From IMG/VR virus record IMGVR_UViG_2548876701_000026: a stretch of 17,205 nt of DNA; one strand, 5' to 3'. Position numbers and translations under genes: made by a program. The stretch comes from a virus (lineage: Duplodnaviria > Heunggongvirae > Uroviricota > Caudoviricetes). Within the stretch, counting starts at the first letter, position 1. Every line of letters starts with the position of its first letter. The notes below the pieces were generated by a model. It was not told the DNA's origin and searched no databases. It saw only the letters and a list, made by a program, of their open reading frames with translations. Positions 1-17,205 of the stretch are shown one piece after another.

Positions 1-201
1 TTAAGACTCCAGTTTCGCAAAGGCTCGACGTAACTGATTATTCAAATCACGGTCGACCAGCATCGCTATCAGCTCGTCTCGACTGTAGTAAGGGCGATCA
101 GGGTTATCGACTCCAAGTCTCAGCAGGGACAGGAGGTGACGGGTAGGCAGACCACGGTAGCGGAGAGTTGCACGACCAATAGGTGTGCGCGGGTCAATCA
201 T
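1..201 (-). CDS. hypothetical small protein (66 aa), translationally coupled to the upstream Rha-like gene
   Basis: Complete ORF: stop codon at 1-3, start at 201, overlapping the stop of the 203-931 gene. No recognisable motif. Confidence 0.45.
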   Translation of the reverse strand: MIDPRTPIGRATLRYRGLPTRHLLSLLRLGVDNPDRPYYSRDELIAMLVDRDLNNQLRRAFAKLES

Positions 202-202
202 C

Positions 203-931
203 TTAGAGTCCCTCCAGCTTGCCGGATTGGGCTTGCTTCAGGAGATGCTCTTGCTTCTGCTGGTCGGTGCCAGTGAAGGCAATAAGGATGCCTCGCAGTT
301 TATCGACTATCGCAGGCTTACCGAAGACCTCCAATCCCTTAGCGTTGAAGCGAAAGTTATAACCACCTGCTGAGAACTTCTGGTCTGACGGCTTAATGAT
401 ACGGAAGCAGTCGGAATACTTTGGATTTACAGACCACTCGTTACTGATTGGGTTCTTACGAAAGAGACCACGATGCTGAAGAAGTGCGGTCATTAGCTTC
501 TGAGCGGGTAGACCATAGGTTTTGCAGTAGTCGCCCCAAGTCACGCCTCGGCGGTTAGCGGACTGAATGGCTGCTCGCTTCTTCTGGTCTTCCAGTTGAA
601 GGACTCGACGCTCTAACGTCTGAATATGGTCGTAACACTTGGCGCGGAGGTGAACGGAATAGCCAGCGACCAGAATGAAAGTATGCTTACGGTCGAGACG
701 GTACAGAGGCTGCTGTTTCCCCTGCGCGTTTAGATAGACATCTTCAGTCACCCCGATATGACTGCTCAGTTTTGAGCACTGCTCAGTTTTGAGCGCGTTA
801 AGCTCCTCAGCCATATTGCGAATATCACGTAGGACATTTCGGTGCTCCTTGCCTGTCAGCTCAGCAATTTCAACTGAGGTCATGGAGACAAGCTGGTCGA
901 GGTTAATGACGCTGATTTCTTGTTGAGACAT
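203..931 (-). CDS. Rha-family phage regulatory protein with antirepressor (KilAC-like) C-terminal region
   Basis: N-terminal segment SVEIAELTGKEHRNVLRDIRNM matches the Rha-family signature as I remember it. AAGGAG-like RBS upstream of the ATG at 931. 242 aa. Confidence 0.7.
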   Translation of the reverse strand: MSQQEISVINLDQLVSMTSVEIAELTGKEHRNVLRDIRNMAEELNALKTEQCSKLSSHIGVTEDVYLNAQGKQQPLYRLDRKHTFILVAGYSVHLRAKCYDHIQTLERRVLQLEDQKKRAAIQSANRRGVTWGDYCKTYGLPAQKLMTALLQHRGLFRKNPISNEWSVNPKYSDCFRIIKPSDQKFSAGGYNFRFNAKGLEVFGKPAIVDKLRGILIAFTGTDQQKQEHLLKQAQSGKLEGL

Positions 932-1233
932 TTACGTGTACTCCTTTTGTTTGCACCCTGAAGTCGCACCCCCACTGACCTACTCAAGCCCCCACGTAAA
1001 GGGAGACCAGCAGGCAACAGGACGCAAACAGAATGACTTGAGGTAATTGGGGTTAGTGGTCTGCGATGACCATAGAGATGAAGGTTCGACAGCATGTCCG
1101 AGCGTGTGTGGTGATAGACTTAAGTCACGAGACCAAAGAACACAAAGGCTGACCAGAGGCTGGTGGCTAGCAAGCTAGCGTGGACCACGGTTTCTCGCTT
1201 GCCGTCTCTCAGGAGGTCAGAGGCGAGATATGG

Positions 1234-1255
1234 TCCCTATAGTGATAGTTTAGTC
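1234..1255 (-). promoter_or_regulatory. T7-class single-subunit RNA polymerase promoter-like element (copy 1), predicted start near 1237 reading leftward into the Rha gene
   Basis: Minus strand reads GACTAAACTATCACTATAGGGA; the core TCACTATAGGGA equals the -8..+4 core of the T7 consensus TAATACGACTCACTATAGGGAGA. Exact 21-nt direct repeat of 1793-1813. Confidence 0.5.
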
Positions 1256-1587
1256 AAACAGGAATGAACTTCGGAGAACCTGACGCGAAAGTGTTCAGTA
1301 CTTCCAGTTAGACCCGAAGTATGGAGAACCACATCATAGCGACCGTAGTATACTTCGGGCTGACAGGACTGGAGGCTGGACTTAAAGTTCTTCTTATTGG
1401 AATTGTGATAACACAATCCATAACAAGATGAACTCATGGTCTCCTCAAGCCTGCTGGTCAGGCTCAAAGCTCCAACCTCAGACACCACTGGTCTAACCTT
1501 TTTGAGTTTCCGCCTGTCCACAAATGGATGGCAGACCTCAGCAATGATGTCTTGGTTCTTCACAATCTCGCACACCGATGGTCGCAT
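1237..1587 (-). CDS. hypothetical protein (116 aa by ORF track; alternative start at 1437 with GAGGAG RBS gives 66 aa)
   Basis: ORF lies between promoter-like copies 2 and 1. Weak RBS at 1587, better RBS before the internal ATG at 1437. No motif recognised; could be spurious. Confidence 0.2.
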   Translation of the reverse strand: MRPSVCEIVKNQDIIAEVCHPFVDRRKLKKVRPVVSEVGALSLTSRLEETMSSSCYGLCYHNSNKKNFKSSLQSCQPEVYYGRYDVVLHTSGLTGSTEHFRVRFSEVHSCLTKLSL

Positions 1588-1790
1588 AGACGGATACTTC
1601 CGCTGCGGTCTGATGTTCTCCGCCTGTCAAAGGAGAGAGATTGCTACGTTAAAGGGAATGGTCTCAGGCCAAGGTGATTTAACACTAGGCTTATTGCGGA
1701 TGGTTTCCAATCGGTCCGCTACCGGAAGCCTGAGACTTAATGAATGTGTGGGTCGGTGGCTGTATTAAGCCCGGGGGGACTTAGGGTCTC

Positions 1791-1813
1791 TCCCCTATAG
1801 TGATAGTTTAGTC
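1791..1813 (-). promoter_or_regulatory. T7-class promoter-like element (copy 2), predicted start near 1795
   Basis: Minus strand reads GACTAAACTATCACTATAGGGGAGAGACC. Identical 21-mer to copy 1, and GGGGAGAGACC resembles the T7 initiating region GGGAGACC. Confidence 0.5.
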
Positions 1814-1820
1814 CCCCCCC
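1813..1820. repeat. C8/G8 homopolymer tract between promoter-like copies 3 and 2
   Basis: cccccccc at 1813-1820, read directly. Confidence 0.9.
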
Positions 1821-1839
1821 TTCCCCTATAGTGTGGGTT

Positions 1840-1840
<1 letters not shown>
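1821..1840 (-). promoter_or_regulatory. T7/SP6/K11-class promoter-like element (copy 3, divergent upstream half), immediately after the stop of the 1840-2499 gene
   Basis: Minus strand reads AAACCCACACTATAGGGGAA; CACACTATAGGG core. Confidence 0.35.
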
Positions 1841-4099
<2,259 letters not shown>

Positions 4100-4340
4100 G
4101 TACTGAGACCTTAGGTCTGCTCACTACTTCAACAAAGTTAGTCACAGTGTTGGTTACAGTGAGTAAAACTATCGGAAGGCTTTAAGCCGTATCCCTTAGG
4201 ATTCAGTAAGTTAGTAGACTTTAAGAATGGTCATGGAGCGGGCGAAGGGAATCGAGGAAACCCATAATAACCTGCTGTAAAATAAAGATTTTGTGATCAA
4301 TCATAGGTAACTGATTACGTGATAATAGAGGATCATTATC

Positions 4341-5561
4341 GTGTCGATCAAGAGCCAAGCATACTTATTTAAGAGAAAAGATGGGATCTGGATGTTTCAG
4401 ATTTTTGTTCCTAAATACTTACGTCATCTTTACCCTTACAAGTTGTGGAGAAAAAGCACATCTACACGAGATCTGAATGAGGCGAGAAGATTCAGAAACC
4501 ATCTATTATTAGAATGGGAGGAACTAAAGCGGAAACATAATCCTGATAACCCCGAAAGGAGGTTACAACAAGCTATTGAATCCTTACATTCAGAGGCAAG
4601 GGCCAATAAAAACACGCAAAGAGCCGTAAAACGCGGTTATGCATCGCCTTCCCTATGCTTAATACGTGACGAATACGCCGAATGCTACAGAGAGCGTCGT
4701 TCATACTCAACACTACAGAAATCAGCAAGGGCCGTTGAGCTATTTTTACAAAGCATTCAGAAAGATGATATTCATATTGAGAAAATAGGCAGACGGCTTG
4801 TAACAGTATTCTTAGATGACCAGAAGCAACGAGGAGCAGCCGATCAATCTCGTCAAAACTGGCTTACATGCTTAGGATCGCTCTATGAATTTGCTAAACG
4901 CCGTTATGACGGAATACCAGACAGTAACCCTTTTCACGGTCATAATCTCGAAGCACGTCGCACAATCGAGAGTTATCAACCGTTTACACCTGAACAAATG
5001 CAAAAGCTACTTGATGCAGCGGAGCCGGAGATCAGAAATATTATTTTAATGGGCTTGTTTTCAGGATGCAGATTAGACGAACTGGCAAGTCTGAAAAAGT
5101 CAGAGGTTGTAACTGTGGAAGGAATACGCTGTTTTTATATCAGCAAAAGTAAGACTAAAGCAGGGATCAGGCACGTTCCGATACATTCGAGACTATCGAT
5201 TATTGTCGATGAATATTTAAATCATAATTATGGTGAATATTTGTTCCCTCACTCGAACAAAGTAAAAAGAATCGACGGTAAGAAAGGCCCGTTCTATTCT
5301 CAAGCGTTCTCACGTTTACGTCGTAGCGTCTTGCCAATCGCTACAAATAGACAATGCTTTCACAGCTTGCGCGGGATGTTTATCACTTGTCTTGATCGTG
5401 CCGGAGTGCCTGAACAGCGGATCGGTGCCATTACCGGACATACAGAGCAGAGAGCTAAAACAGAAGCCTTTCGCACCTACTCACAAGGGGCAAGCATTCC
5501 AGAATTAGCTGAATATGTAGAATTAGTAAGATATGAATTAAATATTGATTTTAAGGCTTAA
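4341..5561 (+). CDS. int: tyrosine site-specific recombinase / phage integrase (406 aa, GTG start)
   Basis: R in GCRLDELASL, H-x-x-R in HSLRGMFITCL, GHTEQ...AFRTYSQ with the Tyr. N-terminus YLFKRKDGIWMFQIFVP parallels the other integrase. AGAGGA RBS 8 nt upstream of GTG. Confidence 0.85.
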   Translation: MSIKSQAYLFKRKDGIWMFQIFVPKYLRHLYPYKLWRKSTSTRDLNEARRFRNHLLLEWEELKRKHNPDNPERRLQQAIESLHSEARANKNTQRAVKRGYASPSLCLIRDEYAECYRERRSYSTLQKSARAVELFLQSIQKDDIHIEKIGRRLVTVFLDDQKQRGAADQSRQNWLTCLGSLYEFAKRRYDGIPDSNPFHGHNLEARRTIESYQPFTPEQMQKLLDAAEPEIRNIILMGLFSGCRLDELASLKKSEVVTVEGIRCFYISKSKTKAGIRHVPIHSRLSIIVDEYLNHNYGEYLFPHSNKVKRIDGKKGPFYSQAFSRLRRSVLPIATNRQCFHSLRGMFITCLDRAGVPEQRIGAITGHTEQRAKTEAFRTYSQGASIPELAEYVELVRYELNIDFKA

Positions 5562-5582
5562 AACAACGCCATAGGCGCAATA

Positions 5583-5611
5583 AAGAGGCTTCCTTGTAAT
5601 GGGAGCCTCTT
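5583..5611. terminator. bidirectional hairpin terminator between the convergent integrase (plus) and 613-aa gene (minus)
   Basis: aagaggcttcc / gggagcctctt form an 11-bp stem with one G-U wobble and a 7-nt loop, with T/A-rich flanks. Confidence 0.45.
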
Positions 5612-5668
5612 ATATGCTTAATTCCTTATAAGAGTGTTTTAAATGGTGATTAAACATTCTCTTTATCA

Positions 5669-7510
5669 TTAACTTGGTGCTTGCCCAGACAGAGCCGCCA
5701 ACGTGAAACTACGTTCAAAATCTTGTTGGATACTTCCCACTTTGTAATCGAGGTATGATCCAAGCTGACTACCATCAGGAGCGATATTCACATCAACCTT
5801 ACTTTCTGGCACGTTTACGACAATGCTTGGCGCATACGTCATAGATGGGGTAGTGTTCAGATCACGGCTAACGTTCTCTTTCAGGGATTGCACGTTATCG
5901 GACGGGCTTGAATAGTTCTGAATTGCAGTTCCGCCAGTCGTTGGCTTGTCTTCCGTGCCAGGGATAGGCGATAAGCCTAAAGCACTACGACCCCAATCAA
6001 CCATGCCGCCTACAAACGAATCCTTATAATACATACCGGACGAATCAAGGTTTTCATGTTTGTTCTCTGGATTTATATTCTGGTATGCAGCAGTAAGCCA
6101 CGATACAGCACCAGCAAAGGCGCTCATCATTTCAGCCGTTGAGCTTCCAAGTTCTTTAAACAGAGGATTGAGATCTTTCAACATTTGCGCCCACTCTTCA
6201 CCAGCCTGAGCGTCGAACTCTTCACCGAATCCCGTCATGATAGCTTTCTTACTACCTTCCCAGGCCATATTCATATTAGCCTGTACAGCTTGCAGACGTT
6301 CAGCAGCGTCAAGATCCGCTTGCGTATAGGTGGCATTGGCTTTTTGCATCTTAACGATGGTTTTATTTAGCTCTTCACCGTTACGACTGAAAGCACCACG
6401 GAAATATTGTAAATCATTTCCAAGGTCTTCAAGGATGTGACCCTGCTCCTGATCAGAGAGTCCACGGCGTTCTCCTTCTTTCACTACAGCGCCCAGGAAA
6501 CCTAATGGATCAGTCTGGAAACCTTTAATCTGTTCAGGACTCCAACCATATTTATTAAGGATGTTATCGACGGCACCATTACCGCCAGCCCAGCGACCTT
6601 TCTTAGCGTCCCATTTGGTATTCCCTACGGATTCACCTAAACGCTCTTGAACGTCTTTAAGGTTGTCTTGACGTTGGTCTACGGAACTATCGACACCGTG
6701 TTCTAAGCCGTACTGATTAAGTGCTAACAGGGCGTTAGTGTTTACGTTGACAGCCTTTGCCTTGCGGTTAGTGTCTGTGATCTTGCTTGCCTGATCGGTT
6801 ACGGTATTGAATATCGCAGCACCGCCGAGAGTGGCAGCAGTGAGAGCGGCACCGCCCACCATTGCACCTACACCACCGCCTATATGACCGCCTTTAAGCT
6901 GTTTAGCCATATGTGGATATTTACCGCCATCAGCCGCCACCTGGCGAGCTTTTACAGCAGCCGCACGGCGTTCTAACGTGATACGATCACGGATCAGGTG
7001 ATTCATCTTAGCCTGACTAATAGCGCCTTTCTCATACGCTGCCGTTTGTGCTTTGATGTATTGCAACGTTTTGTAGTATTGGGCGGAGTCCATACCGTCG
7101 CCCATACGCCCTTTCTTAATCCCTTCAAGCTGTCTGAAAGCTTGCTGGCGCTTAATCTCTGCTTTCTCTGCTATTGTCGCTTTAGCGCGGATCTGTTTAT
7201 CGGCAGCTATAGCGGCTTTAGCCTTCGCTTTAGCTTCTGCCTTTGCCACCTTATCAGCGTTCTTCTTATCGGTTTGAGCTTGCTTGTCTGACGCTTTGGC
7301 ATCAGTTTTAGCCTGTGCAGCTTTACGAGCCTTTACCAGATCATGAGCCTCGTCTATAGCTCGTTTAGCCTTCTTCCCTTTCAATGTTGGATTGGTTAGG
7401 TTTTCCATTTCTTTCTGAAATTTCTTCCCTGCGTCCCTTGCTTTCTGTAATGATGCAAAATCAACTTTAAATACAACCTTGTTTGTTAAGGTTGAGATGT
7501 TTAAATCCAT
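5669..7510 (-). CDS. large coiled-coil / glycine-zipper protein, tape-measure-like virion protein (613 aa)
   Basis: Lys/Ala/Glu-rich heptad-like N-terminal third (KVAKAEAKAKAKAAIAADKQIRAKA), hydrophobic Gly-zipper GGHIGGGVGAMVGGAALTAATLGGAAIF, long low-complexity C-terminus. AAGGA RBS upstream. Product assignment by composition only. Confidence 0.45.
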   Translation of the reverse strand: MDLNISTLTNKVVFKVDFASLQKARDAGKKFQKEMENLTNPTLKGKKAKRAIDEAHDLVKARKAAQAKTDAKASDKQAQTDKKNADKVAKAEAKAKAKAAIAADKQIRAKATIAEKAEIKRQQAFRQLEGIKKGRMGDGMDSAQYYKTLQYIKAQTAAYEKGAISQAKMNHLIRDRITLERRAAAVKARQVAADGGKYPHMAKQLKGGHIGGGVGAMVGGAALTAATLGGAAIFNTVTDQASKITDTNRKAKAVNVNTNALLALNQYGLEHGVDSSVDQRQDNLKDVQERLGESVGNTKWDAKKGRWAGGNGAVDNILNKYGWSPEQIKGFQTDPLGFLGAVVKEGERRGLSDQEQGHILEDLGNDLQYFRGAFSRNGEELNKTIVKMQKANATYTQADLDAAERLQAVQANMNMAWEGSKKAIMTGFGEEFDAQAGEEWAQMLKDLNPLFKELGSSTAEMMSAFAGAVSWLTAAYQNINPENKHENLDSSGMYYKDSFVGGMVDWGRSALGLSPIPGTEDKPTTGGTAIQNYSSPSDNVQSLKENVSRDLNTTPSMTYAPSIVVNVPESKVDVNIAPDGSQLGSYLDYKVGSIQQDFERSFTLAALSGQAPS

Positions 7511-7526
7511 AATATTTTCCTTTACC

Positions 7527-7562
7527 TTTTATTTGTTTTGTTTTGTTTTGTTTTGTTTTGTT
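7527..7562. repeat. pentanucleotide simple-sequence repeat (TTTTG)n on plus = (CAAAA)n on minus, about 6 units
   Basis: tttg followed by five perfect ttttg units at 7536-7560, read directly. Encodes the C-terminal KQNKTKQNK of the HTH gene and sits 18 nt upstream of the 613-aa start. Confidence 0.9.
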
Positions 7563-7735
7563 ACGTAGTATTGCACTGCTTCCATAGCTGAGCAGCCAGT
7601 AGTGAAGATTCTTTGACGTACAGCAGTATTAGAGATCCCTAAAAACTTACACACTTGAGAGATATTCAGAATATCTTCCGGTAAGGTGGAAACAGCTTTC
7701 AGGATCTCAACTGGATTGTTGTTTTGTTCGCTCAT
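7529..7735 (-). CDS. small helix-turn-helix DNA-binding protein (AlpA/excisionase-like), 68 aa from the ATG at 7735 (ORF track extends to 7786)
   Basis: ILNISQVCKFLGISNTAVRQRI is a classic HTH. The N-terminal 17 codons of the 7786 start overlap the upstream terminator hairpin, so the internal Met (MSEQ) is preferred. C-terminus is encoded by the (CAAAA)n repeat. Confidence 0.5.
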   Translation of the reverse strand: MSEQNNNPVEILKAVSTLPEDILNISQVCKFLGISNTAVRQRIFTTGCSAMEAVQYYVTKQNKTKQNK

Positions 7736-7778
7736 GATTTTTCTCTCACAATATTTTAATAGACGGTATAAACGAAAA

Positions 7779-7839
7779 AAGGGCAAAAGAGATTGTTTAC
7801 TGTATTTGCGCTACAGGTTTAATAATCCCTTTTGCCCTT
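7779..7839 (-). terminator. intrinsic terminator after the capsid-like gene (long-loop hairpin plus U6 on the minus transcript)
   Basis: aagggcaaaag (7779-7789) and cttttgccctt (7829-7839) are perfect inverted repeats; aaaaaa at 7773-7778 gives UUUUUU 3' of the stem on the minus strand. The 39-nt loop contains an inner ctgta/tacag hairpin. Confidence 0.4.
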
Positions 7840-7888
7840 ATTGCCTGTTTTATTTCCAGTCGCACAGGAAACGACTATTAACGCTTTA

Positions 7889-8917
7889 TTACGCTACTGT
7901 GATCTGTACAGTGAAGCCTACGCCGTGGTTTACAACCATCTGGCTATTCTCAGTAACTACGTTTACAGCGTCGTTACGTGCTGGGCTAAACGCATAGCTG
8001 TAATATTCAGCCGCGCCAGAATTCAGCAGGTCGAACGTTGAAGAAGGAGCGCCGAAAATGTTCTGATAGACGTTAGAGCCTTTAGCGAACTTCGGAACAG
8101 CAACCGCATCAGAAGTCATATGAGCCAGCAGCAGCGGATCAGTAACTTTAACGATATCGATGTTAGTCCCAGGAATAGTGAAGGTAGTCACACCTGGCAG
8201 CAGGGAGCGCACGCTATAAACGATGTTTGCGTCATCGGTAGGGCTTGCATACTGGAACGCGTTAACCATGCCAGCACTGTAACGGATAGCGTTGAAAGCA
8301 GCAGGTTTACAGAATACAACGATACGTTCTACAGCAGCCGCCTGGCTTTGTGCTTTAGTAATAACGTCTGTATGCATCTGATCGAATTGCTGGAACACCA
8401 TAGAAGGCGTGGTGCTTGATGCGTCGATGGTTGCAGTCATCGGAACAACACTAAACAGATCGCCCCACTGGATCAGCACATCATCAGTTTTAGGGGTGTA
8501 AGTGCGACCAGAGAACAGGGAAGCAGCCAGCACGCTTTCTTTAGTACGCTGGAAAGCAATGTGGTGCTTAGCAACATATTCCGCGTAGATATCTGTCAGA
8601 GTTTCTTCAACGGTAGCGCCTGGTTTACGTTTGCCTTGCACGTCTTGCGGCTTAATCATATCTTCACGCAGGAAGTAGGGGATCTCTACTAAAAATTCTT
8701 TACCCTGTTCACGTTTAGTCACGTTATGTTCAGAAGAGAAACGAGAGGTTTCTTTGTTGAACAGAGATTCGTTAGTTTCCACCAGTTGGCTAACAGCCAC
8801 TTTATGAGAACTCACACCTACCGGATCAGTAAAGTCGAGAGAAGTTAACAGGAAGTTGCGAGAGTCGTGCAGACTAAACAGCGGAGCCAGATCGACGGAT
8901 TCATTACCAATAATCAT
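7889..8917 (-). CDS. putative major capsid protein, lambda gpE-like (342 aa)
   Basis: Size and synteny (about 120-aa decoration-like gene immediately upstream, terminator downstream). Loose colinear resemblance to lambda gpE as I recall it (segments IAFQRTKESVLAASLFSGRTYT and ERIVVFCKPAAFNAIRYS). AAAGGAA RBS. Not verified by search. Confidence 0.45.
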   Translation of the reverse strand: MIIGNESVDLAPLFSLHDSRNFLLTSLDFTDPVGVSSHKVAVSQLVETNESLFNKETSRFSSEHNVTKREQGKEFLVEIPYFLREDMIKPQDVQGKRKPGATVEETLTDIYAEYVAKHHIAFQRTKESVLAASLFSGRTYTPKTDDVLIQWGDLFSVVPMTATIDASSTTPSMVFQQFDQMHTDVITKAQSQAAAVERIVVFCKPAAFNAIRYSAGMVNAFQYASPTDDANIVYSVRSLLPGVTTFTIPGTNIDIVKVTDPLLLAHMTSDAVAVPKFAKGSNVYQNIFGAPSSTFDLLNSGAAEYYSYAFSPARNDAVNVVTENSQMVVNHGVGFTVQITVA

Positions 8918-8935
8918 TATTTTTATTCCTTTATA

Positions 8936-9307
8936 TTAAGATGTGAATACAGTGTTAAAACCAGCCATCTGGAAACCTTTTGCAGCCAGGGCAGCAATAG
9001 CAGCTTCTTTCACAGCGCCTTCAACATTCAGAGCATCGGACTTGATGCAAACCAGTCCGGCATTGCTACGCAGCACGTTAACGGTTTTAGCGTCGCCAGC
9101 GGATACCGCATCAGACACAACTACAAGAACATCGCCGCCGCTTACATATTCAGCGCCGTCACTGGTAATCAGATCGCCGCATTCAACATCAACCGCCAGA
9201 TCAACGGTAAAAGATTGCACACAACCGAACTCATCAGTTGCATATGAAACGATATCGGTAAATGATTTGCGAACTGGAAACAGATCGCTCATATTAATAA
9301 TAGCCAT
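8936..9307 (-). CDS. putative head decoration protein (gpD-like), 123 aa
   Basis: Position immediately upstream of the capsid-like gene; small Ala/Val/Gly/Asp-rich protein with a C-terminal AAIAALAAKG segment. AAGGAAA RBS. Confidence 0.35.
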   Translation of the reverse strand: MAIINMSDLFPVRKSFTDIVSYATDEFGCVQSFTVDLAVDVECGDLITSDGAEYVSGGDVLVVVSDAVSAGDAKTVNVLRSNAGLVCIKSDALNVEGAVKEAAIAALAAKGFQMAGFNTVFTS

Positions 9308-9309
9308 AA

Positions 9310-9525
9310 TTAATAGTTTCCTTTTTTGGATTGTTTGATTTGTTCTGCTTTTGCTTTAATCAGATCCTGCATAGTAGGTTTCTGTTCATCAGCAGACTTA
9401 AAAAGCTTATCACAATGTTTTTTCAATTCTGTGGGAGTGATCCCCAGCATATAAGCCGTAGCATTGAATGTTTCATCAGTGATAACCAATTCTTCGTTAC
9501 CATTCTTTAGAATGAGATTTTGCAT
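9310..9525 (-). CDS. hypothetical small protein (71 aa), first gene of the capsid-like cluster
   Basis: ORF with stop abutting the start of the decoration-like gene. No motif recognised. Confidence 0.4.
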   Translation of the reverse strand: MQNLILKNGNEELVITDETFNATAYMLGITPTELKKHCDKLFKSADEQKPTMQDLIKAKAEQIKQSKKGNY

Positions 9526-9578
9526 TATTGCTTTACCTTTATTCCTAACAGTCTTGTTTAGTGCTGATAAAAATAAAA

Positions 9579-9599
9579 CCGGAAGGGGAAAGCTTCCGG
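9579..9599 (-). terminator. intrinsic terminator (minus-strand orientation)
   Basis: ccggaag / cttccgg form a 7-bp GC-rich stem with a 7-nt loop; on the minus strand it is followed by UUUUAUUUUUAU (plus 9565-9577). Confidence 0.55.
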
Positions 9600-10115
9600 C
9601 TTTATGAATACAACATTTGAAGGATGTTATAGAGTGTTACTAAATCGCAGTTTATATGAACTTAAAGAGGAGGACATATAAGAATAAGATTGCTTATTGT
9701 TATATACCCTTGAGGGGTGAATAACAGGCTTACAGGGAGTAGGCGCTTAGGAGGTCGCCCCCTTTGGAGAGGAATCTATAAACCTGTTATTCGTGCGACG
9801 GCTAATCGCTGTCTTTCACAATGTGGATGCATCGATCAGACTTTCAGGAATCACCTATTAACTTTCAAACCTTTTGGATTCTCATTTTAATAGGAGGCGG
9901 TGCCGAGATGATTTCGGGGATCATCCACGCTTTCGCGTTCTAAGATTGGCACCTTAATAAACACCAACAAACAAAAACATATTCAGCTTTAAGCTTAGTA
10001 GAAAACTGTTGTCAAGAAACAGATATACACCGTTATTTGTTTATACGGGGTTTATAGACACTGTAAACAGTGTTTTTAGAAAGTGTTTCATGCTTCGCAG
10101 TTGGTTAAAAAGATG

Positions 10116-10137
10116 AGGGGCCAAATCCGTAGCCCCT
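10116..10137 (-). terminator. candidate intrinsic terminator downstream of the small-gene operon
   Basis: aggggc / gcccct form a 6-bp stem with a 10-nt loop; the minus strand then reads CAUCUUUUUAACC. Confidence 0.35.
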
Positions 10138-10403
10138 GCATTCTTAAGACACAATTTTGATAAAGCAATAAGGAAAATAAAATGAAACTATTAACGAGGG
10201 AAACAATTTCTAAAAAATCACTGTAAAGGGAAAGCGGGATAGGTTAGATAGGGCGCGCCCCCTTGAGGTCTACCCCGCTTTCGTGTAGGATTAGAATCGG
10301 GAGAAGGATTAACGCCAGCTAACACATATTTTCGATTCAAAACCCCACATTTATTATTATAACATTTCTGTTAGTAAAAGTCAATAGGTAAATGCAATTA
10401 TTT

Positions 10404-10613
10404 TCAACTTTTTTCGGTTGTCAGTTCCCACTCACCAAATACGCAATTACCATCTAAAACGATTGTTTGATCGTTACCGTTATCATCGGTTACGTGCATC
10501 AGGCGGGTGTAAGTGTCGAGTAAGCCGGTATACACTTTACCTACTGTGAAACAATTACCCGCTTTCCCTTCTTCTGTGAGCGCCAGAAGGCGCACACGTT
10601 TAGTTTTTGTCAT
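10404..10613 (-). CDS. hypothetical small protein (69 aa), last gene of the operon
   Basis: Start overlaps the stop of the upstream gene (TAATG). No motif recognised. Confidence 0.45.
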   Translation of the reverse strand: MTKTKRVRLLALTEEGKAGNCFTVGKVYTGLLDTYTRLMHVTDDNGNDQTIVLDGNCVFGEWELTTEKS

Positions 10614-10921
10614 TAGTTGTTAGCCTTATCGATTAATTCATTAATGAGGGGTTGCAGATCTGCTACCGCTTCTTTCATGATTTCAGTGGTGTCATGAATG
10701 ACGATGATCAGATTAGAAAGGTCATCAGCTTCAATCTGTGCACCTTCGCTCTCTTCGCACGCTGCAATAAGTAGTTGCAGTGCTTCCCGCGTCGATTCCA
10801 GATTAATAACCGCCTGTGTGATGGTTAGCTCGCTTGGAAAAGTCAGAGCCGCGTTTACTGCTTTCTGTAAATCAATAACCAGATCCATCATTTGAATAGT
10901 TACGTTGTGTACTTCGCTCAT
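10613..10921 (-). CDS. hypothetical acidic protein (102 aa)
   Basis: TAATG overlap with both neighbours; Asp/Glu-rich helical-looking sequence. Confidence 0.45.
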   Translation of the reverse strand: MSEVHNVTIQMMDLVIDLQKAVNAALTFPSELTITQAVINLESTREALQLLIAACEESEGAQIEADDLSNLIIVIHDTTEIMKEAVADLQPLINELIDKANN

Positions 10922-11142
10922 TATGCCACTTCCTCTGATTGTTCTAATTGTTGTTGTGCTTCACGAGCTTTCTTCATAGCAATAGTGAGCGGGATTTTAT
11001 AAGTTGCAATGTTGTCTATAATATCATCGAGTAAACCGAGATCGTTTTCTTCCTGTGCACGTTCAATCAGGCTTATGAAGCATTCAGAAAGAAGTTTAAG
11101 ATCGTGAAAAGTGGTTGTCTCTAAAATTGCTTTGTTAATCAT
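10921..11142 (-). CDS. hypothetical small protein (73 aa)
   Basis: AAAAGGAAAA RBS upstream; acidic C-terminal tail. Confidence 0.45.
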   Translation of the reverse strand: MINKAILETTTFHDLKLLSECFISLIERAQEENDLGLLDDIIDNIATYKIPLTIAMKKAREAQQQLEQSEEVA

Positions 11143-11183
11143 TTTATTTTCCTTTTGTTAAGGGTTATATTCAGCAAACGCTG

Positions 11184-11564
11184 TTAATCGTCGATTTTTA
11201 TTTTATCAAGCAGAAGTAATTCGGTTTCTCTCACCCCTGCATATTGCAGACTGTTAAGAGCCATATACCCCCTAAAGTGGTGCATATCCTGAAAACCCAA
11301 ACACTGCCATCTTTTCAGAAGACTGGAATCTATAACCGTTGTTTTGCGTGGGCGCGGATTAAAGTAAACACCGTCCATACTTTGAATGAGTGATAATTCT
11401 TCGTCTGTTAATTCTGGGCTTGGTTCTTCAAGTATAAAGATCAATTCCTCGCCTGGTTGTGCATCATGCTCATAATTATATTTGCGAGGATTGTTTAACG
11501 CATACTGATCACATGCTTCGCCAATAGTTGTTATTACGTTTTTCTTGCCTTTTTTCTTGCTCAT
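11184..11564 (-). CDS. hypothetical protein (126 aa)
   Basis: GAAGGGGAAG RBS; basic N-terminus MSKKKGKKN. No motif recognised. Confidence 0.45.
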   Translation of the reverse strand: MSKKKGKKNVITTIGEACDQYALNNPRKYNYEHDAQPGEELIFILEEPSPELTDEELSLIQSMDGVYFNPRPRKTTVIDSSLLKRWQCLGFQDMHHFRGYMALNSLQYAGVRETELLLLDKIKIDD

Positions 11565-11685
11565 TGCTTCCCCTTCGTTTTGTTTTTCTTGTTGCAGTGT
11601 TAAAAAAGGAAGCGATCATAAATACTAAGAAAAATATTAAGCTTTCCATTGTTTCACCCTTCAAGATGTTTGATAGTTGTTTGTT

Positions 11686-11904
11686 TTAAGCTACAGAGTC
11701 GATTCTGAATGCTTTCATATGAGTTTTGGTATACTGCAATAATCCTTGTTTACTTAGGCTATCGAGAAGAGCATATAAAAATTGCTCACCTACCACACCG
11801 GAAAACTCAGAATCAAACAGAATCATTCCCGTTCTTTCCCGTAAATATTGCAGAAAGGTTTCTTGTGAAAATTCGCTATCGAATATGGTCACAGCGCCAC
11901 CCAC
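11686..11904 (-). CDS. hypothetical protein (72 aa, GTG start); possibly the downstream half of a frameshifted gene with 11889-12146
   Basis: GTG start overlaps the end of the upstream ORF by 16 nt in another frame; internal duplication IFDSEFS ... LFDSEFS. Confidence 0.3.
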   Translation of the reverse strand: MGGAVTIFDSEFSQETFLQYLRERTGMILFDSEFSGVVGEQFLYALLDSLSKQGLLQYTKTHMKAFRIDSVA

Positions 11905-12146
11905 AATTCGAAAGGGCTTATCTCAAGCAAACGGAACGTCTGACTATTCACAGCCTCATACTTAATTACCCCAAAATGGCTCAGGTGATTTAACCAGTGC
12001 TGTGTGTGTTCTTTACTATGAGGTAACTCCTGAAAGCTGATAATCGCGGGTAGCTCATAATTGCTATCAGCAAGCTGTTTTGCCAGTGTGTAGCCGCTTT
12101 CTGTAATTTCGAATGTTCGTTTGTTTAATGTCAGGTTGTATTTCAT
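11889..12146 (-). CDS. hypothetical protein (85 aa)
   Basis: AAGGAG RBS 9 nt upstream of the ATG; stop of the Rep-like gene is 12 nt upstream. Confidence 0.45.
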   Translation of the reverse strand: MKYNLTLNKRTFEITESGYTLAKQLADSNYELPAIISFQELPHSKEHTQHWLNHLSHFGVIKYEAVNSQTFRLLEISPFELWVAL

Positions 12147-12158
12147 TTTTTATTCTCC

Positions 12159-12824
12159 TTAAAATGGTATTGAGTCATAGATTTCACTTTCTTTTCTCAG
12201 GGCTATCATCAGTGCATTAAAAGCATCATCTTCAAGAATTATCCTCTTCGAGGTCAGTGCACGTTTTATAAAATTTTCTGTTTCTTCTTGCATAGGCTTT
12301 TGGCTGTCTATGGAAATAAGCCATGTAAAAAGATCAGATTGTTCCGTGATTTCTGCCTGTGTTTCCTGCTCAATAGAGTGTGTCGCTTCTAACGGTTCCT
12401 GTGTTTCAGGTGCAGGCTGTTCTACGTTTACAGAGGTTTTTACGTCTTCCGGTGGTGTGATGTGTGCATCTGTAAAGGGTAATGCTTTATAGAGTGATGT
12501 TTGCCCGTCCCGTGCCTCTACAGAAAGAACACCCATATCAATAAACATATTTATAATATTACGCACCTGACGATCACTAACCATTCCAATATTAGCTAAT
12601 GTTTTTTGATTGGCGTAACATTCTTGCCCTTGTTCATTGAACCCAGCTACGTAACTGTAGATTTCAACGGCTGGAAGTGTCGCGGTGTATTCCTTACCTG
12701 ACGGTGAGAACCACTTTTTAAACATCTTCAGCCATTGTTCAACTACTACATATGTTTGTTTACTATCTTTCTTATTGAGGCATTGCGCTTTTGCTTCGGC
12801 AATTGTTTTGGTGTTTTGGTTCAT
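12159..12824 (-). CDS. winged-helix DNA-binding protein resembling phage/plasmid replication initiator or replisome-organizer N-terminal domains (221 aa)
   Basis: Segment YSYVAGFNEQGQECYANQKTLANIGMVSDRQVRNIINMFIDMGVL fits the pattern (Y..N...G.CY.SQ.TLA...G.S...V.R.I..L...G.I) seen in Rep/replisome-organizer HTH domains; acidic linker follows. AAAGGAGG RBS. Confidence 0.5.
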   Translation of the reverse strand: MNQNTKTIAEAKAQCLNKKDSKQTYVVVEQWLKMFKKWFSPSGKEYTATLPAVEIYSYVAGFNEQGQECYANQKTLANIGMVSDRQVRNIINMFIDMGVLSVEARDGQTSLYKALPFTDAHITPPEDVKTSVNVEQPAPETQEPLEATHSIEQETQAEITEQSDLFTWLISIDSQKPMQEETENFIKRALTSKRIILEDDAFNALMIALRKESEIYDSIPF

Positions 12825-12948
12825 TTAGTTCCTCCTTTGTAAGGACTGTAATTAGTAATTCATTAACAAGTTTTGGAATTGATTTCCCTTCTGCCTTTGC
12901 ACGATTTAACAACGCGTTATAAGTTGCAGAATCAAAATTAATATTCAT
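12772..12948 (-). CDS. small DNA-binding-like protein, possibly ribbon-helix-helix (58 aa; below the ORF-track cutoff)
   Basis: ATG at 12948 with AAGGAG RBS at 8-nt spacing. Hand translation MNINFDSATYNALLNRAKAEGKSIPKLVNELLITVLTKEEL... shows a strand-helix-helix pattern. Overlaps the start of the Rep-like gene by about 50 nt. Confidence 0.4.
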   Translation of the reverse strand: MNINFDSATYNALLNRAKAEGKSIPKLVNELLITVLTKEELNEPKHQNNCRSKSAMPQ

Positions 12949-12971
12949 TTGGTTTTCTCCTTCTCCTGTTA

Positions 12972-13154
12972 TTATTCTTTCTCTGCTTCTGCCTTACGCA
13001 GTTCATCAATAATTTTTAGTGCATCGTCAAAGCATTTTTCACGCTCTGGATAACCACAGCGCCGCGCTGTGTTCCTGTTCATCCTTACTTGATGTCGTGT
13101 TAGCTCACCTTTTTTAAATGCCTCTACGACGTGTTCCGGTGTATACCATTTCAT
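12972..13154 (-). CDS. hypothetical small basic protein (60 aa from the ATG at 13154; ORF track begins at a GTG at 13187)
   Basis: AAGGAG RBS 6 nt upstream of the ATG (MKWYTPEHVV...). First gene of the leftward operon. Confidence 0.45.
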   Translation of the reverse strand: MKWYTPEHVVEAFKKGELTRHQVRMNRNTARRCGYPEREKCFDDALKIIDELRKAEAEKE

Positions 13155-13769
13155 AAAAAACTCCTTATTTAGATAAAAGAAAAACACACCTTGCAGCCTG
13201 ACGGCTCAAAGTGCAGTGTTCTGTGATTTGATTATTTAGATGGAGAGAGATGTTTCTCCCCTCCCTACTTACAATACTACATAACGGCGGCTTTGTCAAC
13301 CCTCTCTTATAAAAAACTTGATCATTTTCAATTTCTTATAATTTTTCTTAGCTTTTTGTGCTGCCTACTCTGGTACAATTCTTCCCTGTTGCCTAAAACG
13401 CTCTCAATCGCACTCTGACGGGGGTTTTGATAAAAACAATACATTCCCTTATGTAGAGGTTGTTTATCTCGTCAGAGGCTTATTTAAGGGGCTTATTTTT
13501 GATTTATCAGATGATGGAAAGATGGTGGATAGATAAACTCTGATTTCAGACATCTTATAAAATACCTGTAAAGCTCCTCAGAAGCTCTATAACGAGCTAA
13601 TCTATTACCGCTAAGTGTTTCCCTACCTTATATACGTTTAGCTCGCCTACGGCTTGATTTAAGCGGTAGAAACTTATTTAACCTTCAACTACTAAAACCA
13701 TTCTTTCTTTTTTGTTTGTTGTTGGTTGTTGTCTGTGTCTATGTGCTAACATCGCTAACGCGTAGCACA

Positions 13770-14035
13770 CAAGGTTATTGCACTCGTCAGAGTATTGCAC
13801 AATAGATTTTCTCTTAAATAGATTGATGATCGTTAGATTGGCGTAAGCCTCATCAATGGAACTATTGAAGCGCACAGCGCATAGACACTAACAACCATTC
13901 GCTTACGCTCAGGTTATTGCACAAGTAAATTTCAATCGTTAGATGGTAGTTAGTTAATTATCGTTCTGCGCACAGCGCAAGACTATTAGCCATACGCAAG
14001 CCGTAGGCTATTTGCACATAGTAGATTACATATTC
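13770..14035. repeat. degenerate tandem repeats of about 100 bp carrying recurring TTGCACA, CGTTAGAT and CGCACAGCGCA motifs
   Basis: cgcacagcgca at 13871-13881 and 13969-13979; cgttagat at 13831 and 13937; aggttattgcac at 13772 and 13911. Confidence 0.5.
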
Positions 14036-14918
14036 GTTGTGAGCGGAAAGCGAACATAGATCAGCTAACTACTAACAAAAAACAAAAAACAAAAACTATC
14101 TGTTATGACAAGCATCAGTCTAACTTGTGCAAGGTTCTGGCGAATGCCAATAGATTAAGGGATAGTCGAAGACTCCCTAACGGGTATCCCTATAATTATT
14201 CTTTAAAAGATAAAAGAATTTATAAAAGATAGTTTAATTGTAGTTTAATTATAGTATTGTAGGAACTCATTTCCTGGGTAGGTAGGAAACCCGCACTATA
14301 CGGTAAAAAGTGCTTGCATGTCAACTTATATTATGTTAATTGCGGCTTTAGATCGTCTAAGTGATTGTTAAAAGTAACTTTTAAAGTTAACAATTGATCA
14401 ATCAAACTTAAAAATTCCCGGCTTTAGAAAAGCATAAGTATTGTGCACACTGGTAAGTGTCTTGCACAGAAAAAGGTGTAAAAAATGTCTAAAGCCCTTT
14501 AGATAAAAATGATACCTTTATACATGCGCTAATAGCGCGCATAACAATAACCTACTAACAACTAACTAAAAAGTAAGAAGATGTTGTTATGATTAGTGTA
14601 TCGCTCAACGCTCACATCTATCTCTGATCTATAAATTGGTAACTGTCTAACAACAACAAACAACTATTACATGCAAAACAGCCTTACGGCTGCATAGAGA
14701 TGATTGGCTAACCTTCGGTTGCTACGCATAGCCATATCTATGAGAAGATAAAAGAGATTTAAAGGTTAGTTTGTTGTTGATCTAACTAACATTCGCTATA
14801 CGCTCATACAATCTACATTACACATTAACTATCAAACTACAATCTAACGATATATAGAATCTATATCCACTCATTATCATTCGTGCAATGATCACATTGA
14901 TAGTTCGCTATACGCTCA
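13898..14918 (+). repeat. four same-orientation iteron-like direct repeats TCGCT-N2/3-ACGCTCA; candidate origin or recombinase-binding region
   Basis: Copies at 13898-13911, 14601-14614, 14792-14806 and 14904-14918, inside a 2.25-kb AT-rich region with no credible ORF. Confidence 0.5.
14074..14094. repeat. (AACAAAA)3 heptanucleotide tandem repeat
   Basis: Read directly. Confidence 0.85.
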
Positions 14919-15440
14919 CCTCTATTATGTGCAATGGCTTTTCAGGCAACGCGTTAGCGTATTCTTGCGAATGCCTGATCTCCAAAGCCGGAATTAAACA
15001 GCAAGAATATCTCGTGTAAATCATAGAATATTCATAGTTTATCCCTATGTAATTCCATACTAAAAATTCAATGAAAAGTAGCTTAAAAGAGCAATGTTAG
15101 CTTTCTTCACTTTTACATTATCATCAGCAAAGCCTTATGTAATGCGGCATATAGCGCATCACTGCAAAATTGTTGCTCAATAAACGTTCTATCATTTATT
15201 GAACAAGTTTCCTTTAATGCAACAAAAAATTATTTTTTCAAAATAAACACACTATTTAATAGCTTGCTAATTTTACCAAAATGTAACTACATGATTCTCA
15301 TGCAAGACGTGTAGTGATAAAGCAGGCTAAATCACCACACTAAAAACCTTCGAATTTCGTAGTGAAAAAAGTCCTTTACACACCTAATCAACACGATCAA
15401 TAATCACTACACACAAATCAACACAGAAGGAATAAAGAAA

Positions 15441-15992
15441 ATGGCTAATATTGGATACATTAGGGTATCGACTGTGCAACAAAACACAGACCGTCAATTA
15501 GCTGGAGTAGCTCTTGATAAAGTCTTTGAAGATAAAGCGTCAGGCAAGAATACCCAGCGCCCACAGTTTGAGGCAATGATGAACTATGTGCGGGAAGGTG
15601 ATGTTTTGCATGTTCACAGTATTGATCGACTTTGCCGTAATACAGCCGACCTACTGGCAACGGTTGAGCAATTAACAGAGCGCGGCGTGTCTGTGCATTT
15701 CCATAAAGAAGACTTTAAGACAGGGAAGAACTCTCCCGCAGGGAATATGATGCTCACAGTGCTTGCAGCAGTGGCACAAATGGAACGTGAAATGATGCTT
15801 GAGCGCCAGCGTGAGGGGATCGCCGCAGCTAAGGCCGCTGGACGTATAGCAAAACGTGGTAATGGAAAAGCAATTGATCGAGCGGGAATTGCTGCCGCTC
15901 TCGCGAATGGTGGATCAATTCGGAGCGTAGCAAAAGATTTCAGTGTCAGCACACAAACGGTGCAACGTATCAAGAAAGAGCAGGAAGCGTAA
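15441..15992 (+). CDS. small serine recombinase of the resolvase/invertase family (183 aa)
   Basis: N-terminus MANIGYIRVSTVQQNTDRQ with the catalytic Ser in the GY(I/A)RVS-T motif; DRLCRN; C-terminal HTH GSIRSVAKDFSVSTQTVQRI. Compares well with Hin/Gin/TnpR as I recall them. AAGGA RBS. Confidence 0.85.
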   Translation: MANIGYIRVSTVQQNTDRQLAGVALDKVFEDKASGKNTQRPQFEAMMNYVREGDVLHVHSIDRLCRNTADLLATVEQLTERGVSVHFHKEDFKTGKNSPAGNMMLTVLAAVAQMEREMMLERQREGIAAAKAAGRIAKRGNGKAIDRAGIAAALANGGSIRSVAKDFSVSTQTVQRIKKEQEA

Positions 15993-16227
15993 TGCCTCCT
16001 GATATTTCAGAATTGTCGCTGCATGGACCTGACGGCGCTGATCTTCTCGTTAAGCGATGATCACGTATGCGCCGATTTCAGAGAAAAAGACAGTAACTGA
16101 ACTCACTATGAAGGCTAAACGTATCTTTACACTTGATGGAAACGTCCAAAAAACAACCTAACCCCAAAACCCAACAAATTGCAAAATATTGTTTTTAAAA
16201 GAAAATCAAATCTACATCAAATATTGG

Positions 16228-16256
16228 TTGACGTAGATTGAGGTGAATAGTAGACT
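16228..16256 (+). promoter_or_regulatory. candidate sigma70-type promoter (TTGACG-17-TAGACT) overlapping an imperfect inverted repeat
   Basis: -35 TTGACG at 16228-16233 and a 4/6 -10 at 16251-16256; inverted repeat AATCTACATCAA / TTGACGTAGATT at 16209-16239. Confidence 0.25.
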
Positions 16257-16332
16257 ATTAGGATAAATTACCAGTATTGCACACAACAAATTTGCATGAT
16301 TTAATCCCCCTCACATTCATTTAGGGGGCGTT

Positions 16333-16500
16333 ATGCATTTATCTTCAAAACATCTTAGCACTATCCGCTTTCTCGTTATTGCTTCATTCGTTGTAGCTAT
16401 CAGTTACCGACTTTTTGTTGCCTCCAATGACGAAATGAATCCTCTTGCTATTATTGCCCATTCAATAGCGACAATAGTTAGACGGTTTGAAAAACCGTAA
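16333..16500 (+). CDS. small hydrophobic (single transmembrane helix) protein, 55 aa; not in the ORF track
   Basis: AGGGGG RBS 4 nt upstream of the ATG. Hand translation MHLSSKHLSTIRFLVIASFVVAISYRLFVASNDEMNPLAIIAHSIATIVRRFEKP. The RBS can pair with CCCCCT at 16305-16310. Confidence 0.35.
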   Translation: MHLSSKHLSTIRFLVIASFVVAISYRLFVASNDEMNPLAIIAHSIATIVRRFEKP

Positions 16501-16644
16501 TACAATAAACATCCGAAATAATTTCGAAAGCAACTCATTTTTACTCTGCAAACAATCAGAAAAGACTTAATTTTGCTAAGTTAATGCATTAATCTAAAAA
16601 CGCTTTAAATCAATACATAACCATTATCTCTTGGGATTATTTAC

Positions 16645-16965
16645 ATGCGCAAAAGTTTAATGCTGTTACTTGCTTCAACATTGATTATTTCTGGATGTGC
16701 AACAAAAAAACAACTCGTTCCAACTGGTGGAAGCAAATCAGACGGCACAGTTAGGATGAGTTATTCTTACGGTATGTTTGAAAGTCCTGTTGTAGATCCA
16801 CAACAAGGCATGAATGCAGCCAAAGCGCGTTGTGCCGCTTGGGGATATTCAGGAGCCGAGCCTTTTGGTGGATTCACTTCTCAATGTTCACAACCTTCTT
16901 CATCTGGTTGTATGCAAACACTTGTGACTATCGAATATCAATGCACTGGCGATATTAAGAAGTAA
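16645..16965 (+). CDS. lipoprotein (106 aa)
   Basis: Signal peptide with lipobox LIISGC (Cys at residue 18), followed by a Cys-containing mature domain. Confidence 0.65.
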   Translation: MRKSLMLLLASTLIISGCATKKQLVPTGGSKSDGTVRMSYSYGMFESPVVDPQQGMNAAKARCAAWGYSGAEPFGGFTSQCSQPSSSGCMQTLVTIEYQCTGDIKK

Positions 16966-16970
16966 TAATT

Positions 16971-16987
16971 AGGGGCTTCCAGCCCCT
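16971..16987. terminator. bidirectional hairpin terminator between convergent genes
   Basis: aggggct-tcc-agcccct: perfect 7-bp stem with a 3-nt loop. Confidence 0.5.
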
Positions 16988-16998
16988 TCTATAACCAT

Positions 16999-17205
16999 TC
17001 ATGGAACAGGGACAACCGAAATCACTTTAAACCCTGAAACAGCCGTTACTCCATTAGATGGAGAATTAAATCTCACAGTATCTTTTCTTACTGCATCATG
17101 AATTTCATCTTTTGTTGGTTCATGCTCTGAATGGAATAAAACCTCTTCCATTCTAATTTGATCACCGTCTCTATGCTCATAAGTAATCTTGTAGCTAACA
17201 GTCAT
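16999..17205 (-). CDS. hypothetical small protein (68 aa); start codon is the last three bases of the window
   Basis: ORF with ATG at 17203-17205; convergent with the lipoprotein gene. No motif recognised. Confidence 0.45.
   Translation of the reverse strand: MTVSYKITYEHRDGDQIRMEEVLFHSEHEPTKDEIHDAVRKDTVRFNSPSNGVTAVSGFKVISVVPVP

Follow-up and report, generated by a model that had tools for sequence, protein, structure and literature searches.

A predicted Tn3-like resolvase/res cassette on a genomic island at glyU in Escherichia coli

The described systems that come closest to the locus considered here are the resolvases of Tn3 and gamma-delta and the Res/res system of Salmonella genomic island 1 (SGI1). 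The res of Tn3 has a length of 114 bp. The res of SGI1 is laid out as 28/22/30/2/25 bp, with the centres of boxes I and II 51 bp apart, the central dinucleotide AC and the promoter over box II, and its box III is weakly symmetric (Veress, Szabo and Kiss 2025, PMC12217951). When the Res/res of SGI1 was restored, cointegrates were resolved at close to 100%, and tandem multimers are removed by it orders of magnitude faster than by homologous recombination (PMC12217951). The present analysis concerns the gene for a small serine recombinase of 183 amino acids (aa), together with the DNA upstream of it, in a 17,205-bp stretch of Caudoviricetes DNA (IMG/VR record IMGVR_UViG_2548876701_000026; the whole stretch is referred to as the window). 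The gene and its upstream sites likely form a stand-alone Tn3-like resolution system, namely a small serine resolvase and its cognate tripartite res, which together make up a cassette of a 13.5-kb island at the tRNA gene glyU.

Recombinase and predicted res site

The reading frame of the recombinase, taken from the first start to the stop, is intact, and the protein matches the Pfam Resolvase family PF00239 at residues 4-135 (E 5e-39), which bears out the small serine recombinase named in an earlier note on the window. Profiles of the helix-turn-helix (HTH) domain matched residues 144-180 slightly under the Pfam cut-offs (HTH_23, 24.3 bits vs. 24.6), and the alignment to the HTH of gamma-delta reached residue 180. 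The whole length of the protein could be aligned to the resolvases of Tn3 and gamma-delta (E ~2e-27, 38% identity); matches to the Gin invertase (E 3e-25, 37% identity) and to Sin (E 2e-18) were also found. Alignment to the Tn3/gamma-delta resolvases revealed Arg8, Ser10 and the DRLxR motif. The features of a small serine recombinase are therefore present: a catalytic domain with the serine and the arginines and an HTH within 183 aa, with no large C-terminal extension. In five relatives that differ by 2-5% of nucleotides, the ratio of nonsynonymous to synonymous substitution rates (dN/dS) of the gene was 0.02-0.12. To judge from these data, the gene is genuine and intact and is subject to strong purifying selection, and the low dN/dS allows us to assume that it is functional.

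Directly upstream of the gene, six half-sites with the consensus TGTRGTGAW were found at 15310-15425, forming a 116-bp cluster within 131 bp of the start codon. Five of the six match the consensus with at most one mismatch, compared with about 0.13 matches expected per 116 bp, an estimate based on the motif's background frequency in the window; the sixth (15387-15395) came from a dyad scan. The half-sites were grouped into three predicted sites of 30, 38 and 23 bp, separated by gaps of 18 and 7 bp (Table 1). Site I is distal, site III adjoins the gene, and 52 bp separate the centre of site I from that of site II. No other copy of the site I dyad was found in the window or in the 41-kb locus L001, even with 3 mismatches, and 0 copies are expected by chance. 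A predicted tripartite upstream res with a distal crossover site, as in Tn3-type systems, was thus found in the sequence. In the earlier note, a recombination site was expected immediately beside the gene and half-site dyads within 300 bp upstream of 15441 were to be looked for; sites I and II are such dyads. Given this res-type site, the plasmid-style resolution system that was suggested there appears to be the best reading. Binding of the resolvase at sites II and III would cover its own promoter and probably lead to autorepression. In this way, the vague label "recombinase family protein" can be replaced with a concrete site map of a crossover dyad and two accessory sites.

Table 1. Features of the window and half-sites of related recombinases (positions refer to the window unless a locus or plasmid is named)
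Feature	Position or source	Strand	Description
Copy of the attachment (att) core TGGAGCGGGCGAAGGGAATCGA	4234-4255	.	22-bp direct repeat, 3' end of tRNA-Gly glyU; left end of the island
Tyrosine integrase of the island	4341-5561		Adjoins the att core
Stretch free of open reading frames (ORFs)	13188-15440 (2.25 kb)		In relatives: L002 6661-8424; L003 5548-7535; L004 5244-8204
Leader	15214-15309	.	A/T-rich; left part of the 15214-16007 cassette; travels with the recombinase type
res site I, predicted crossover site	15310-15339	.	14+2+14 dyad TGTAGTGATAAAGC / AG / GCTAAATCACCACA
res site II, predicted accessory site	15358-15395	.	Inverted pair of half-sites, CGTAGTGAA and ATCAACACG, spanning 38 bp; dyad scan
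Promoter-like sequence	15375-15404	+	-35 TTTACA, 18-nt spacer, -10 AATAAT; inside sites II/III; 10/12 matches in consensus scan
res site III, predicted accessory site	15403-15425	.	Half-sites ATCACTACA and ATCAACACA, direct repeat 14 bp apart
Shine-Dalgarno-like GAAGGA	15426-15431	+	9 nt 5' of the ATG
Small serine recombinase (resolvase) gene	15441-15992	+	183 aa, ATG ORF; RefSeq WP_001273866.1 "recombinase family protein"
Ser10 codon (tcg), predicted catalytic nucleophile	15468-15470	+	Aligns with Ser10 of Tn3/gamma-delta; motif GY(I/A)RVST
Hairpin across the stop codon	15981-16001	+	Cassette homology stops at 16007
Half-site TGTAGCGAT	L051		Klebsiella island
Half-site TGTATCGAT	Plasmid pPSS-11_2		5.8 kb, E. 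coli
Half-site TGTAGTAAT	Plasmid pDETEC86		1,985 bp
Half-site TGTTGYAAT	L006-L009		Clade of 78-82% identity
Half-site TGTATYCAT	L003		ATCC 8739 island, 61.5%-identical recombinase

A comparison with the Tn3/gamma-delta systems indicated that the proteins are alike in size, two-domain fold and catalytic residues, and that an upstream res of about 115 bp with three dimer subsites (predicted here) is common to both. The distal position of the crossover site, the location of site III beside the gene, the distance of about five helical turns between the centres of sites I and II and the half-sites starting with TGT are also shared, and the promoter-like sequence found here is overlapped by accessory sites, as the Tn3/gamma-delta promoter is. 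However, no transposon, TnpA or terminal inverted repeats of ~38 bp were found here, site I is 30 bp long with central AG rather than 28 bp with AT, and site II spans 38 bp rather than 34 bp. In layout and setting, the locus is similar to SGI1, since in both cases a tripartite res and a small serine resolvase are located on an integrative genomic island; a central dinucleotide other than AT and weak or absent symmetry of site III are common to both, and the promoter in SGI1 and the promoter-like sequence here lie over the accessory sites. SGI1 is helper-dependent and replicates after excision, and a circular stage is presumed for the present island. Unlike SGI1, which is mobilised by IncA/C plasmids, the present island has capsid-like and tape-measure-like genes, and its res is intact, whereas that of SGI1 is usually split by In104. 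Sin of staphylococcal plasmids and the beta recombinase are similar to the present type in being plasmid-borne resolvases and in having one accessory site with direct-repeat half-sites, but they use two subsites and a host DNA-bending protein, while three subsites are predicted here, and Sin is more distant than Tn3 in sequence. The invertases Hin, Gin, Cin and Pin share the fold and the size of the protein; however, three adjacent sites are predicted here in place of one, and no paired inverted crossover sites and no orientation polymorphism were seen. A recombinational enhancer bound by Fis is a further characteristic of the Hin/Gin invertases. The module is likely an uncharacterised member of the well-known Tn3-like resolvase/res kind, and its predicted mechanism is an ordinary one, as a specialist would expect.

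A mechanism can be outlined by combining the sequence with what is described for Tn3/gamma-delta and SGI1. In Tn3-type systems, recombination is confined to directly repeated res sites of one supercoiled molecule, and its outcome is resolution rather than inversion or fusion. Sites I, II and III would be occupied by resolvase dimers, and two directly repeated res sites on one molecule would synapse via the accessory sites. Cleavage by Ser10 would then take place at the AG in the middle of site I, and the DNA between the two res sites would be lost by strand exchange. The substrates would be head-to-tail multimers of an excised replicating circle, or tandem integrated copies, which would be reduced to monomers. 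Since there is one res per island, the natural substrate would be a molecule with two head-to-tail copies of the island. No head-to-tail (attP or tandem) junction was found in 266 complete genomes carrying the island ends, which is consistent with this role, though weakly so, and IMG/VR contained no match to an attP or tandem junction. The result points to a plasmid-like stage in a widespread, uncharacterised family of islands.

Several observations weigh against a Tn3-like resolution system. The identity of the protein fails to separate a resolvase from an invertase (38% to Tn3 vs. 37% to Gin). The regulatory 2-3' interface of the Tn3/gamma-delta resolvases is formed by the residues R2, R32, K54 and E56. 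These residues are not conserved here, where A, K, Y and R were found at the aligned positions, so any synaptosome of this system would be built differently. In addition, three inverted dyads, as in Tn3-type res sites, were not found: the half-sites of site III form a direct repeat, which is conserved in relatives, and those of Tn3 are inverted; site II of Sin is a precedent for such a direct-repeat arrangement. Some related islands (L004) have no recombinase, and L004 indicates that the recombinase is dispensable for the island family. Finally, we infer the replicative circular stage of the island from the weak matches of a neighbouring 221-aa protein to replication initiators (PHROG E 7e-6; Pfam HTH_36 under the cut-off).

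Homologs and distribution of the cassette

Homologs with 62-82% identity to the recombinase were found on islands and small circular plasmids, and they retain the res layout. In homologs with 64-70% identity, namely those of an Enterobacteriaceae strain (L010), a circular 4.9-kb Leclercia contig with a 127-nt terminal overlap (L011), a 4.7-kb Salmonella contig (L048) and a Klebsiella island (L051), the half-sites lie at about -131/-110, -83/-54 and -38/-24 from the ATG, matching the positions in the window, and the -10 element lies between sites II and III. A site I dyad with an AGC-NN-GCT core was found at -131 to -141 in these four loci and in L002 and L044. The site II half-sites at -83/-54 are kept in the same four loci and in L067, and the site III pair at -38/-24 is kept in all of these five and in L002. 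The positions of the -35 and -10 elements are also kept in relatives, the -10 element being TATAAT in L048, L051 and L067. The sequence of the half-site differs from clade to clade (Table 1) and is altered jointly at all six positions, as expected for the covariation of a recombinase and its cognate res. The clade-specific half-sites could provide a practical set of orthogonal resolvase/res pairs.

Homologs with this res are located on complete plasmids of 1.95-5.8 kb and on circular contigs of 4.7-4.9 kb, where multimer resolution is their obvious role. Complete plasmids of about 2 kb were found in E. coli and Salmonella (L032, NZ_CP116175.1, 1,985 bp; NZ_AP027492.1, 1,952 bp; NZ_CP130129.1, 2,000 bp). 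The only annotated gene of L032 encodes a 68%-identical recombinase homolog, and this plasmid has its own three-dyad res with upstream runs of GAGTAACCC / AAGTAACCAGCC repeats. No Pfam matches were obtained for the plasmid proteins encoded beside the homologs. Other homologs with 64-72% identity (L051-L053 in Klebsiella and L044-L047 in E. coli) lie on other small islands or at prophage ends, with defence-type cargo beside them, namely Kiwa KwaA/KwaB, an HNH endonuclease and a DUF6119 protein. A gene for a GmrSD nuclease was found near the recombinase gene in L003.

The cassette (15214-16007) was found in 296 of 5,426 complete E. coli genomes (~5%; median one copy), and in 294 of these 296 it is complete. 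Roughly 18 of the complete genomes have 2-3 cassettes. It occurs in related islands at glyU, thrW and the thiM thiamine pyrophosphate (TPP) riboswitch. The leader (15214-15309) is common only to loci with the same recombinase type (the window, L002, L005 and L036) and is not found in L003 or L004. Even in minimal 7.6-kb islands at thiM, the recombinase gene adjoins a conserved Rep-like operon and a long non-coding region; in sequence, this arrangement appears as in the rep-ori-res core of plasmids.

Other possible roles of the cassette

A wider reading, which we consider doubtful, can be added to multimer resolution. The cassette would be the third element of a maintenance core (rep, long non-coding region and res) of undescribed, satellite-like islands that bear a capsid gene and are integrated at glyU, thrW and thiM, and these islands would also form transient cointegrates via cognate res sites on small plasmids or other islands. 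If true, this reading would account for the way in which recombinase types are swapped like cassettes, and plasmids would offer the islands a route of spread.

It is unlikely that the cassette serves mainly as an exchange or docking site, at which intermolecular res x res cointegrates would shuffle modules, with multimer resolution being secondary. The cassette does have sharp borders (15214 or 15014 to 16007), it moves among islands at the three attachment sites, and its guanine-cytosine (GC) content is 47-51% compared with 31-40% around it. Identical half-sites TGTAGTGAT were found on small plasmid-like circles. SGI1 and Tn3 resolvases are reported to yield rare Res-dependent cointegrates; however, Tn3-like systems strongly disfavour intermolecular fusion (PMC12217951). 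When the island L003, which has a recombinase, was compared with L004, which has none, homology was found to stop within the left half of site I of L003 (L003 7396-7427; L004 7385-7400). This breakpoint may be the footprint of a res-mediated rearrangement, but it is a single case that lies within the resolution limit of BLAST, and the fetched loci contained no reciprocal product. Moreover, the homology borders of window-type cassettes are not at site I.

The assumption that the cassette is a leftover TnpR/res of a decayed Tn3-family transposon, or an idle relic that represses only its own promoter, is quite improbable. The best structural relatives of the protein are indeed the resolvases of Tn3 and gamma-delta, and the cassette is compact and has a foreign GC content. 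However, no transposase-like ORF was found in the island and no terminal inverted repeats were found at the cassette borders. The dN/dS values and the full length of the cassette in nearly all of its carriers also argue against a relic, and so does the divergence between the window and L002, where the res region differs by ~4% and dS of the gene is 0.23, that is, res diverges less than the synonymous sites. In addition, the same module is kept on the 2-kb plasmid L032, which has no other annotated gene.

In the earlier note, an invertible regulatory segment was considered as well. On this reading, the protein would be a Hin/Gin-type invertase that flips neighbouring regulatory DNA, for example the cargo genes downstream or a portion of the 2.25-kb non-coding region. 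Gin is nearly as close to the protein as the Tn3 resolvase, the best-matching PHROG family is labelled "DNA invertase", and imperfect inverted repeats are present in the non-coding region, e.g., 13753-13783 with 14929-14959. These repeats, however, have no recombinase half-site, and their sequence is variable among relatives that share the recombinase. An invertase requires a second, inverted crossover site; in the window and in the surrounding 41 kb, none was found in either orientation with up to 3 mismatches, and no hix/gix-like sequence was found. Relaxed dyad scans gave chance-level matches only; one of them lies at 7446-7475, and relatives do not conserve it. Collinearity with the window was seen in all 23 genomes that span 80% or more of it (99.8-100% identity in the 22 listed), as well as across the region in 12 IMG/VR relatives and 10 further loci; no inversion was found among ~45 related loci or genomes. 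Three adjacent gene-proximal binding sites, as predicted here, are the signature of a resolvase and not of an invertase. These results make the invertible segment very improbable, and the module is a predicted system of ordinary multimer resolution, not an inversion or phase-variation switch.

Least probable of all is a role of the recombinase in integrating or excising the island or a sub-element: serine recombinases can integrate, and weak sub-threshold matches to XisF and Ccr recombinases were obtained with NCBIfam, but these are confined to the catalytic domain and far under the cut-offs (66 bits vs. 375), the 183-aa protein has no large C-terminal domains of the kind that serine integrases have (400-700 aa, recombinase and zinc-ribbon domains), and the island has its own tyrosine integrase beside an att core that is the 3' end of a tRNA gene and is unrelated to TGTRGTGAW.

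Host island and its non-coding region

Chromosomes of the E. coli O26:H11 type (e.g., NZ_AP027176.1) match the window end to end at 99.8-100% identity. In NZ_AP027176.1, the window adjoins tRNA-Gly (glyU), between the remnant of the ETT2 type III secretion system and the xdh genes. The right copy of att, also the 3' end of tRNA-Gly, was found ~500 bp past the window end, and the 22-bp repeat at both ends delimits the 13.5-kb island; the integrated element assumed in the earlier note was thereby located. The gene order of the island is as follows: tyrosine integrase, a tape-measure-like protein (613 aa), a capsid-E-like protein (342 aa), small ORFs, the 221-aa Rep-like protein, the ORF-free stretch, the recombinase and a YecR-like lipoprotein. 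Positions 1-4233 of the window belong to a second element in tandem at the same tRNA site, which has its own 535-aa tyrosine integrase (2492-4099) and also encodes a DUF4145 protein and a Rha-family regulator; in the genome, an IS66 insertion sequence (IS) element follows.

The 221-aa protein had been called Rep-like in the earlier note. This name is supported by the weak profile matches in PHROG and Pfam, but a search of PDB and NCBIfam for a stronger assignment gave no match. Parts of its gene and of a small upstream ORF (12469-12729 and 12796-12962) have 90-96% DNA identity to the rV5-like (Vequintavirinae) E. coli phages muut, inny, Mt1B1_P17 and PaulScherrer. This identity suggests a recent exchange with such phages or a dependence on them.

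The island of the window (4234-17205 and ~500 bp more) belongs to a family, together with L002, L003 and L004, that is characterised by an integrase with a DUF6538 N-terminus, capsid-E-like and tape-measure-like proteins and the Rep-like operon. At least three attachment sites of the family were found: the glyU tRNA, the thrW tRNA and the thiM TPP riboswitch, which is duplicated in this case. The gene set has no obvious fit to the satellites known as P4-like elements, phage-inducible chromosomal islands (PICI), capsid-forming PICI (cfPICI) or PICI-like elements (PLE), and no paper on this island family was found with the terms used. The more unusual features of the locus are those of the host island, namely its three attachment sites, a long region free of ORFs and, for an element of 13.5 kb, a capsid-like gene.

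An ORF-free stretch of 1.7-3 kb (no ORF of at least 60 aa on the transcribed strands) is a hallmark of the family. In the window, conserved blocks lie at 13188-13535, 14244-14291 and 15014-15213; the middle varies, and short units there change in copy number. No Rfam match to an RNA gene was found in this region at gathering thresholds or at E <= 1, and comparison with plasmids and phages revealed similarity only to copies of the island itself. The stretch may be an origin, a regulatory region or an RNA region.

Iteron-like repeats, noted earlier in this region as the nearest repeats to the recombinase gene, do exist: TTCGCTATACGCTCA is found without mismatch at 14792 and 14904 (537-649 bp upstream of the gene) and in degenerate form at 14600 and 14040(-), and 6 matches were found at <=3 mismatches vs. 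0.43 expected. The six copies of TGTRGTGAW are closer to the gene, however, and the proposed link of the recombinase to the iterons did not hold. The repeats were rejected as its target, as they lie in the variable segment 14262-15017, which is missing from 12 relatives (IMG/VR and genome loci) whose res is the same and whose recombinase is 98-99% identical; no upstream copy of TTCGCTATACGCTCA was found in these loci. The repeats may matter for the island, e.g., for replication, but not for the recombinase. A 43-aa ATG ORF (14888-15019) overlaps them and is probably spurious because the segment is missing from relatives.

The conserved block 15014-15213, with three CCYTGTGTAAT-like motifs, was considered as an accessory site and as a part of res. 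Both were rejected: the block is unchanged beside the 61.5%-identical recombinase with other half-sites, and it is conserved in all island variants, including the thrW island that has no recombinase. The CCYTGTGTAAT-like motif was not enriched elsewhere. The motif TATTGCACA was weakly enriched (14 matches vs. 5.6 expected), but it is unrelated to the half-site and was likewise rejected.

Downstream of the cassette, a copy of TATTGCACA (16275) and a hairpin with a 12-bp stem (16209-16239) lie upstream of a 55-aa hydrophobic ORF (16333-16500). This ORF is annotated as hypothetical in several genomes and has no Pfam match; it could be a small membrane peptide or a toxin-like gene. A whole related island with many IS3 copies was also found beside sopAB (L068; NZ_CP126938.1, 31-45 kb), and the replicon that carries it, a conjugative IncF plasmid of 166 kb, is from an avian pathogenic E. 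coli.

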